Of a stretch of DNA of 58,215 nt, positions 28,540-29,013 are shown in pieces. Source of the DNA: a virus. Both the position numbers and the translations under genes were made by a program. Each line of letters opens with the position of its first letter. Positions within the stretch are counted from its first letter, which is position 1. The DNA lies in IMG/VR virus record IMGVR_UViG_3300009417_000001, positions 1 through 58,215 of that record. One strand, written 5' to 3'. The notes beneath the pieces were generated by a model. It ran no database searches, was not told where the DNA came from, and saw only the letters and a program-made list of their open reading frames with translations.

Positions 28540-28587
28540 GTCTCAGTCCTATTAAATTAACGTTGCGGCTTCTATTGGCCGTACCTC

Positions 28588-28617
28588 AGCCTACCACAGG
28601 TTGGTTTTGGAGGTCAA
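28588..28617 (-). promoter_or_regulatory. candidate sigma70-type leftward promoter
   Basis: On the minus strand: TTGACC (28612..28617), an 18-nt spacer, then TGgTAGGCT (-10 at 28588..28593). An AT-rich tract lies upstream. Confidence 0.3.
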
Positions 28618-28786
28618 CACCTAATTCATATAAATTAATTTGGCAAAAAGTTGCGGCTTTTTTAGGGGGGTTGCGGCTTTTGTGCGGGTTTTGTGCGGGT
28701 TTTGTGCGACTTTTGGAAATCCATATAAATTAATTCCCCTTTAAAATTGAGAATCGTGCGTCTTTTGCGGTTTTTCTCTTATATTT

Positions 28787-28820
28787 AGAGAGAGAGAGAG
28801 AGAGAGAGAGAGAGAGAGAG
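28787..28820. repeat. (AG)17 microsatellite at the centre of the inverted repeat
   Basis: 34 nt of uninterrupted AG dinucleotides, flanked by TATATTT and TATATAATATAA. Confidence 0.95.
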
Positions 28821-28871
28821 TATATAATATAACTGAGGAATGTCGGAAAAAAGCCGAAAAGTCGCACGATT

Positions 28872-28900
28872 TTGAAAACAAAGGGAAACTAATTTATATG
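28872..28900 (+). promoter_or_regulatory. candidate sigma70-type rightward promoter
   Basis: TTGAAA (28872..28877), a 17-nt spacer, then TATATG (28895..28900). Confidence 0.3.
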
Positions 28901-28983
28901 AATTAAAAAAAGTCGCACAAAAGCCGCACAAAACCCGCAATTGGGGGTAAAAAGCCGCAACTTTTTGCCAAATGTGGTAAAAC

Positions 28984-29013
28984 TGTGGATTTTAAGGGGG
29001 TAACTGTGGATCG
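28984..29013. promoter_or_regulatory. two DnaA-box-like sites (TGTGGATTT, TGTGGATCG)
   Basis: AACTGTGGAT is repeated at 28981 and 29002. The reverse complement resembles TTATCCACA at 7 of 9 positions. Confidence 0.35.

Follow-up and report, generated by a model that had tools for sequence, protein, structure and literature searches.

Classical iteron-type theta origins, such as lambda ori, P1 oriR and the RK2/pSC101-type origins, combine iterons with bent DNA, a region of low duplex stability and overlapping promoters; their iterons lie in one orientation beside an unwinding element, the Rep or O gene adjoins them, and consensus DnaA boxes are often present. The sites of partition-related proteins, parS and OB, are palindromes. 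In phage P4 the iterons occur in both orientations and a second site, crr, is needed. The P4 alpha protein unites primase, superfamily 3 (SF3) helicase and winged helix in one polypeptide (PMC2777425). The origins of the staphylococcal pathogenicity islands (SaPIs), located immediately downstream of rep, contain 6–12 iterons, distributed equally on the two sides of an AT-rich centre, with at least two iterons per side in opposite directions; these iterons are bound by the SaPI Rep proteins, self-loading initiator-helicases with a C-terminal winged helix, which probably load as two hexamers (PMC9371898). In R1 parC, 5 + 5 direct 11-bp iterons are separated by a 39-bp promoter spacer within a 159-bp site on curved DNA, where ParR acts as a repressor (PMC2241845). 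Here, we describe a mirrored iteron array, referred to as the hub, which lies between the two divergent gene blocks of the phage genome represented by IMG/VR record IMGVR_UViG_3300009417_000001 (positions 1–58,215; the whole of this 58,215-nt stretch was analyzed and is called the window). The hub is clearly a multi-site protein-assembly element and a promoter-bearing, divergent control region, and its architecture together with the type of helicase encoded by the phage suggests that it may be a bidirectional replication origin embedded in the divergent early-promoter region, a reading to which we assign a probability of roughly 0.4.

Structure of the mirrored iteron arrays

The hub is built on an imperfect inverted repeat of 336 bp (28638–28973), which is identical in three independent assemblies. 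The outermost 25 nt (28638–28662 and 28949–28973) are exact reverse complements, an inner 60-nt block is 88% complementary, and the left arm resembles the reverse complement of the right arm along its whole length, except that it has one additional 11-nt unit. The initial annotation had described this inverted repeat at 28640..28971 with an exact outer stretch of 21 nt; the repeat is real and the coordinates given there were accurate, while the exact stretch proved to be 25 nt long. The repeat elements of the region are the following:

28562–28573, plus strand: degenerate additional iteron GTTGCGGCTTCT, located beyond the inverted repeat in the leader of parB and recognized by its sequence as a member of the repeat family
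28627–28639, plus strand: AT box CATATAAATTAAT, copy 1, immediately upstream of the −35 element of the candidate promoter P_L
28638–28775, plus strand: left arm with 7 TGCGNNTTTT units and AT box copy 2 at 28722–28734
28776–28847, no strand: asymmetric 72-bp core, CTCTTATATTT-(AG)17-TATATAATATAACTGAGGAATGTCGG, inside the least stable 60–200-bp windows of the genome
28787–28820, plus strand: (AG)17 polypurine/polypyrimidine microsatellite, detected by Tandem Repeats Finder and equal in length in the three assemblies
28848–28973, minus strand: right arm with 5 units, a degenerate unit near 28849 and AT box copy 3 at 28888–28900
28974–29022, plus strand: GTGGTAAA(A/C)C boxes and AACTGTGGAT boxes, the latter matching the DnaA box at only 7/9 positions
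29059–29126, plus strand: exact 32-bp tandem repeat GGGGGTGGGGGTCCCCGGTGCGCGTGTTTTTA in 2.1 copies, containing the iteron-like GTGCGCGTGTTTTT

The window contains 17 TGCGNNTTTT units against 2.2 expected, and 12 of the 17 fall inside 28652–28959. Seven units lie on the plus strand of the left arm (28652, 28672, 28683, 28694, 28705, 28757 and 28766) and five on the minus strand of the right arm (28857, 28908, 28919, 28930 and 28950). On both arms the units strictly face the core, their spacing is mostly 11 bp, and Tandem Repeats Finder reported a period of 11 for the array of each arm. Degenerate units were recognized at 28564, outside the repeat, and near 28849 in the right arm. Thus, the mirrored arrays previously proposed are real, but the estimate of about eight units in each was too high, as the count is 7 + 5, each with one degenerate copy. 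The AT box CATATAAATTAAT is present in three copies in the window (0.5 expected), and no second iteron array or other repeat cluster was found in the genome.

The core, including the (AG)17 tract with its flanking TA-rich blocks, had not been mentioned in the initial annotation. At all window sizes between 60 and 350 bp, duplex stability in the genome is lowest at the hub; with 200-bp windows the hub gives −241, compared with a genome mean of −288 (standard deviation 9.6) and −253.5 for the next weakest window. The lowest-GC 200-nt window of the genome also falls in the hub (34.5%). Phased A-tracts give intrinsically curved DNA, and when A/T-tract phasing was scored at 10–11.5-bp periodicity, the two arms were the top two windows of the genome (1.22 and 1.21 vs. 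0.53 for the 99th percentile). Because of this phasing the arms are predicted to be bent, with the GC-rich cores of the units on one face. Single-strand folding of the inverted repeat yielded −94 kcal/mol, while shuffled sequences gave −34 ± 3.7 (z = −16). RNA folding of the right-hand leader (28974–29204) was no better than that of shuffles (z = +1.3). The exact portion of the 32-bp tandem repeat in this leader extends over 29059–29122 and is likewise an addition to the earlier description.

Two further assemblies from other samples (JGI 3300027325 and ENA ERZ27241769) contain this hub together with its (AG)17 tract, so it is not an assembly artefact. The only difference among the three assemblies in the hub region is a single nucleotide polymorphism (SNP) at 29109, inside the 32-bp tandem repeat.

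Promoters in and beside the hub

The genome contains a sole consensus sigma-70 promoter, TTGACA-N18-TATAAT, at 39292–39321 (with TATAATATAA, to 39325). Since this is a textbook sigma-70 promoter, the host polymerase is presumably of the ordinary type. The consensus promoter is situated upstream of the gene of a 616-aa protein, the structural protein most conserved among the relatives (41–49% identity). The 10-mer TATAATATAA occurs only twice, in this promoter and in the core of the hub at 28823–28832. The promoter elements and candidates of the region are as follows:

28588–28617, minus strand: candidate leftward promoter P_L, TTGACC-N18-TAGGCT, from a post hoc pattern scan
28819–28846, minus strand: candidate leftward core promoter, CCGACA-N16-TATACT, the −10 box of which overlaps the rightward −10 element
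28823–28832, plus strand: rightward −10 element TATAATATAA, its −35 position lying in the AG tract
29127–29155, plus strand: candidate rightward promoter P_R, TGGTCA-N17-TAAGGT, from the post hoc pattern
31071–31099: candidate promoter TGGTCG-N17-TAGGGT, also from the post hoc pattern

P_L, P_R and the 31071 candidate are each correctly oriented before the first gene of an operon; the flanking-promoter pattern was, however, derived from these same three sites, and is thus an inference rather than a statistical result. Homologous cassettes of about 90 nt, at 29059–29204 and 31055–31145, precede the first genes of two rightward operons. They can be read as CGCG(TG)TTTTNAGGGGGTGGTC...TA(A/G)GGTGGAG...AAAGAAGAA and hold the P_R and 31071 candidates, respectively, the first of them being preceded by the exact 32-bp tandem duplication. 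These cassettes may represent a phage-specific class of promoter and leader. The proposal that the region holds the early promoters of both modules appears reasonable in the light of the candidates found in or beside the hub, and its assignment as a divergent control region agrees with the gene order, in which the hub is the single divergent point.

DnaA boxes and GC skew

The initial annotation had interpreted the region as a classic theta-type origin with DnaA-like boxes. The motif in question, AACTGTGGAT, occurs in two exact copies (28981 and 29002), 21 bp apart. Allowing one mismatch, 7 copies were found against 3.5 expected, and as 6 of 100 shuffled sequences reached this number, the motif is not enriched genome-wide. 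On the opposite strand it reads AAATCCACA and CGATCCACA, which agree with the DnaA box TTATCCACA at 7/9 positions. No perfect DnaA box (TTATCCACA or TTWTNCACA) was found in the genome, and all 15 one-mismatch boxes lie outside the hub. Identification of AACTGTGGAT as a DnaA box was therefore rejected on the grounds of the 7/9 match and the 15 better boxes elsewhere. Four of the six copies of CTGTGGAT are located within 28.5–31 kb on the same strand, and this clustering suggests a binding site of some factor, not specifically DnaA.

Cumulative GC skew, proposed earlier as a check, reaches its minimum at 55174 and its maximum at 31110; the amplitude is small (±150), and no extreme coincides with the hub. 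The AT-skew minimum at 28786 merely reflects the switch of the coding strand. Skew is a weak test in small phage genomes, and the GC-skew result speaks neither for nor against an origin, that is, it is uninformative. As both the DnaA-box and the GC-skew arguments fail, the classic theta-type grammar with DnaA boxes is not supported. The suggestion of an origin itself fared better, since the mirrored iterons, the least stable duplex and an initiator-type helicase favour it; origin function is still something we infer.

The candidate initiator and a possible mode of action

The replication module encodes a protein that would suit an origin of the SaPI type:

19668–21947, minus strand: primase-polymerase (prim-pol)/SF3 (D5-like) helicase of 759 aa, candidate self-loading initiator, with matches to DUF5906/VapE and primase PHROGs

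By sequence, this helicase matches PDB entry 7OLA (PriRep5 of SaPI5) and the NrS-1 primase-polymerase. Its AlphaFold2 (AF2) model has a predicted local distance difference test score (pLDDT) of 62 and is good in the prim-pol and ATPase cores; the Foldseek search with this model returned NrS-1, PriRep5, the Rep of SaPI1 (Rep1) and the poxvirus D5/E5 helicases.

If the hub is an origin, an iteron-binding protein of the phage would bind head-to-tail on the phased 11-bp units, each consisting of a GC-rich GTGCGG core followed by a T4 tract. The most plausible binder would be the prim-pol/SF3 helicase, with a DNA-binding domain at its C-terminus making the contact; otherwise, a helix-turn-helix (HTH) protein of the replication module could take this role. 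As each arm mirrors the other and both have the phasing of intrinsically bent DNA, two complexes of opposite orientation would flank the 72-bp core, which is the point of the genome predicted to open most easily, and transcription from the overlapping core promoters could assist the opening. Loading of the helicase on each side would then create forks moving co-directionally with the transcription of both modules toward the convergent point at 7.9–8.1 kb, and the same occupancy would modulate P_L and P_R.

Several observations weigh against an origin at this site. Half of the core consists of (AG)17 with 50% GC, unlike a classical AT-rich unwinding element, credible DnaA boxes are lacking in the hub, and the cumulative GC skew has no extreme there. 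The C-terminus of the helicase is modelled with helices at 640–716, but the pLDDT is about 40–60 in this part (<60 after residue 660), and a sequence search of the C-terminal 180 aa against the PDB gave no match, so the winged helix is unconfirmed. A distance of 6.6 kb separates the hub and the helicase gene, in contrast to SaPI origins, which lie directly downstream of rep; no non-coding gap or repeats adjoin the helicase gene. Three further candidate promoters also have iteron-like motifs, located at the promoter or upstream of it (29078/29110, 31055 and 31822), which would fit a transcription factor equally well. Finally, none of the relatives carries the hub, so conservation gives no support.

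A more speculative variant, which we regard as doubtful and clearly less probable than the simpler origin outlined above, is a symmetric origin opened by the microsatellite. The (AG)17/(CT)17 mirror repeat would open via H-DNA or via an R-loop of purine RNA and pyrimidine DNA formed from the core promoters, and the mirrored bent arrays would load two SF3-type hexamers head-to-head. If this were true, the hub would be a bacterial-virus counterpart of the origin logic of herpesviruses, SV40 or archaea, and the length of the microsatellite would be a potential tuning knob.

Alternative explanations

The alternative that survives best, although we consider it rather unlikely, is a purely transcriptional operator or enhancer array without any role in replication. 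A regulator, possibly the ParB-like protein, one of the HTH proteins of 167 and 187 aa or the early Zn-ribbon protein, would bind the phased units cooperatively, wrap or loop the DNA and switch the core promoters, P_L and P_R, for example in an early-to-middle switch or in autoregulation. The position of the hub exactly between the divergent operons, with candidate promoters within it and on both flanks, is consistent with this, as are the degenerate unit in the parB leader and the several predicted DNA-binding proteins of the replication module. Moreover, an exact TGCGNNTTTT unit occupies the −35 position of the TATAAT box preceding the terminase gene (31822), and iteron-like motifs are found upstream of P_R and of the 31071 promoter; from these sites it follows that the iteron-binding protein may be a transcription factor. 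Nearly the same geometry is seen in R1 parC, in which two 11-bp iteron sets surround a promoter on curved DNA and ParR represses (PMC2241845); by analogy, arrays of this kind can have an exclusively regulatory or segregational role. On the other hand, 12–14 sites over 336 bp far exceed the need of most operators, the extreme duplex instability of the hub is left unexplained, and the promoters were assigned post hoc. Overlap with autoregulated promoters is common among origins, hence an operator is compatible with origin function and the two readings do not exclude each other.

Less probable still is a ParB loading or centromere-like site, where the orphan ParB-like protein would nucleate on the iterons, as KorB or ParB do in silencing, compaction or positioning, and, if it is a CTP-dependent clamp, could slide or spread from them. 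The gene in question opens the leftward module:

27574–28539, minus strand: ParB-like gene with an N-terminal GHRRYYA arginine patch and an HTH (Pfam HTH_ParB, phrog_1033, TIGR00180)

Its start is 100 bp from the repeat, and partition and KorB-type proteins usually autoregulate from sites beside their own gene. PDB searches matched the protein to Spo0J, ParB and Noc, with which it aligns with the GxRRxxA patch and the HTH retained. Nevertheless, no ParA, ParM or TubZ partner was detected among the approximately 50 proteins scanned, and the units of the hub are head-to-tail, whereas dimers of the chromosomal-type ParB/Noc HTH proteins bind palindromes. A much better candidate site is the dispersed palindrome CAAACGTTTG, which makes loading at the hub less likely. 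It has 12 exact and 14 one-mismatch copies, 26 in all against 2.6 expected, and the 12-mer TCAAACGTTTGA occurs 8 times in the window. The CAAACGTTTG copies are scattered through both modules, in many cases at the borders of genes (e.g., 1670, 3013, 7889, 12923, 18515, 21243, 30937, 32090, 37008, 37635, 50804 and 51710), and none of them is inside the hub repeat. From its sequence, CAAACGTTTG may be bound by the orphan ParB-like protein or by another dimeric regulator.

Other structural or recombinational elements (invertible promoter, hairpin or cruciform, telomere-resolution site or packaging site) are very improbable: a 25-nt perfect inverted repeat of strong hairpin potential (z = −16) does flank a promoter-bearing segment, the terminase gene lies 2.9 kb rightward and, closely preceding its terminase genes, an unrelated viral contig (L005) has similar iterons together with a purine tract, but neither a recombinase nor a protelomerase was detected in the set of proteins scanned, L005 has no protein in common with the window, Rfam returned only sub-threshold plant miRNA models, that is, generic hairpin matches, and the core of 72 bp lacks palindromic symmetry, so that a tel site is ruled out and extrusion of a cruciform is disfavoured. 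Consequently, a telRL protelomerase target was rejected for the asymmetric core and the undetected protelomerase gene, an invertible promoter for the single orientation common to the three assemblies and the undetected recombinase, and a packaging (pac) site for the six genes and the terminator that separate the hub from the terminase gene.

Gene blocks and other features of the window

The first 123 nt of the window are the same as the last 123 (1–123 and 58093–58215), therefore the assembly is circular with a length of 58,092 bp. This overlap falls within a giant open reading frame (ORF) of >2617 aa with ResIII and Strawberry-notch-type helicase domains, which probably starts near 56.3 kb and holds in-frame tandem repeats (7–8 copies of a 12-nt unit, as well as 18-nt and 33-nt units; 2775–2906 and 196–451).

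As the genes form two blocks, there is exactly one divergent and one convergent point in the genome. The former is the hub gap (28540–29204), which at 665 bp is the largest non-coding gap and in which independent gene callers placed no genes; the latter is at 7885–8126. The leftward block, running from 28539 down to 8126, is the replication module and encodes the ParB-like protein, ThyX, a DHH phosphoesterase, the prim-pol/SF3 helicase, a superfamily 2 (SF2) helicase, a PD-(D/E)XK exonuclease and a family-A DNA polymerase. Its two HTH proteins of 167 and 187 aa (16096–16599 and 16596–17159) are further DNA-binding candidates, and a Cpn10/GroES-like protein is also encoded here (14437–14790 of the window, equivalent to L008:10658-11011). 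The rightward block extends from 29205 through the assembly junction to 7885 and opens with a short early operon of a Zn-ribbon protein, a second ORF of 189–221 aa, depending on the choice of the start codon, and GP88. This operon is closed by an intrinsic terminator near 30950–30985, downstream of which the gene of the terminase large subunit, one homologue of which carries the name "Terminase-like family", and then the structural genes follow. The first gene of the early operon is:

29205–29627, plus strand: 140-aa protein with CxxC...CxxC motifs, on which independent gene calls agree

Just downstream of parB, two tandem paralogous small genes (26835–27125 and 27143–27457; 96 and 104 aa) have WVTCAVGNQCASIPR in common. 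No family was matched by either paralogue, the 311-aa neighbour is not ParM-like by sequence, and no Rep or initiator family matched the genes flanking the hub (ParB-like, the two paralogues, Zn-ribbon protein and GP88). Nearly all differences of the three assemblies are at the extreme 3′ end of parB (27576–27590; 3 SNPs and a 1-nt indel), resulting in alternative C-terminal tails of 321 vs. 325 aa. Seven 6-bp palindromes, CACGTG, CAGCTG, CCGCGG, CTTAAG, GCCGGC, GGCGCC and TCCGGA, are absent from the window (0 each vs. 13–19 expected), which looks like restriction-site avoidance, and AACGTT is three-fold over-represented.

Searches for relatives and significance of the hub

DNA searches of GenBank phages and PLSDB plasmids with the hub and its flanking genes yielded nothing, no close relatives of the ParB-like protein, the primase-helicase or the terminase were found in IMG/VR, and in a set of 5.8 billion proteins the ParB-like protein matched only itself. 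The structural-module proteins that were scanned gave zero matches to PHROGs and Pfam. Relatives of the terminase at 26–40% identity have only the structural module in common with the window, and their divergent intergenic regions contain no comparable repeat. A group of metagenomic contigs (L059–L064) carries the module of the terminase, an approximately 800-aa protein (35503–37911) and the 616-aa protein (31913–41319 of the window) at 22–49% identity and differs in the early and replication modules. The most distant terminase match (22% identity) is in a 489,495-bp contig named Prosthecobacter debontii.

Collection scans for the iteron pattern detected 7 viral and 46 metagenomic loci, several of them with 5–15 phased units. 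Their neighbours were heterogeneous (tRNA/integrase junctions, ATP synthase, homoserine dehydrogenase and others), and no protein was common to these loci and the window, so assigning a function through them was a dead end owing to the unrelated contexts. Many unrelated contigs of metagenomic or viral origin contain tandem TTTTGTGCGNN units at 10–11-bp spacing: two or three units lie between tRNA and tyrosine integrase genes at 10 loci (L012, L006, L007 and 7 others), and 5–15 units fill AT-rich intergenic regions of others (L013, L016, L020, L025, L034, L039, L047 and L054). No neighbouring protein common to the TTTTGTGCGNN loci was found, and they were treated as convergent A-tract tandem repeats, not as homologues. 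In the low-GC, unrelated viral contig mentioned above (L005:1-260), TGTGCGG/CCGCACA units in both orientations surround a TATATA-flanked purine tract directly upstream of the small and large terminase genes; it has no protein homology with the window.

The phage thus belongs to an almost unannotatable lineage, the only relatives being metagenomic contigs that have the structural module alone in common with it, and the hub is the one place where the logic of replication and early transcription of this lineage can be read from the DNA. If it is an origin, it would extend to a lytic-looking tailed phage a mirrored-iteron plan that has hitherto been characterized mainly in SaPIs with self-loading helicases. 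The hub also provides a compact fragment of about 450 bp for studying how prim-pol/SF3 helicases choose and open a start site. Should its function be that of an operator alone, its size and symmetry would be unusual. In either case, the finding offers a good handle for experiments and not a new principle, and the element is of a known kind, in a lineage that is poorly charted.

Comparison with known systems

Like the classical theta origins, the hub has iteron arrays, predicted bent DNA, a low-stability region and promoter overlap; unlike them, it lacks a consensus DnaA box, and no dedicated Rep or O initiator was detected in this genome. The resemblance to the P4 ori/alpha system lies in the single polypeptide combining primase and SF3 helicase, and P4 alpha recognizes origin iterons; the differences are that the primase of alpha is of the DnaG type, while here it is a prim-pol, and that this genome has no second iteron cluster. 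As in the ParB-parS and KorB-OB systems, an orphan ParB-like HTH protein is encoded beside a repeat-rich control region, but the units of the hub are direct repeats, ParA was not found, and the dispersed CAAACGTTTG is a better parS/OB analogue than the hub. These dispersed sites resemble those of the Cluster O mycobacteriophages, lytic phages that encode a protein with a ParB-like domain and carry >30 dispersed 17-bp palindromes of unknown function (PMC4351075).

R1 parC is similar to the hub in that two 11-bp iteron sets flank a short promoter-containing spacer on strongly curved DNA, the curvature being predicted in the case of the hub. In contrast to parC, the sets are inverted here, comprise 7 + 5 units and extend over 336 bp with a 72-bp spacer, and no ParR- or ParM-like genes were found, the 311-, 104- and 96-aa neighbours having no such family matches.

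The SaPI-type origins, which serve self-loading Rep/PriRep (primase-SF3/MCM-like) helicases, differ from the hub in several respects: their iterons are penta- or hexanucleotides, while the hub has 10–11-bp units with a T-tract; the arms of the hub form a near-perfect inverted duplication of 126–138 bp that includes the spacers; its centre contains (AG)17; and it lies apart from the helicase gene, by the 6.6 kb noted above, with the winged helix unconfirmed. Nonetheless, the iterons are arranged on both sides of an easily melted centre in opposite directions (7 on the plus and 5 on the minus strand), and a relative of PriRep5, the prim-pol/SF3 helicase, is encoded by the phage. It is mainly because of this SaPI origin plan that we rank a bidirectional origin first among the possible functions of the hub.

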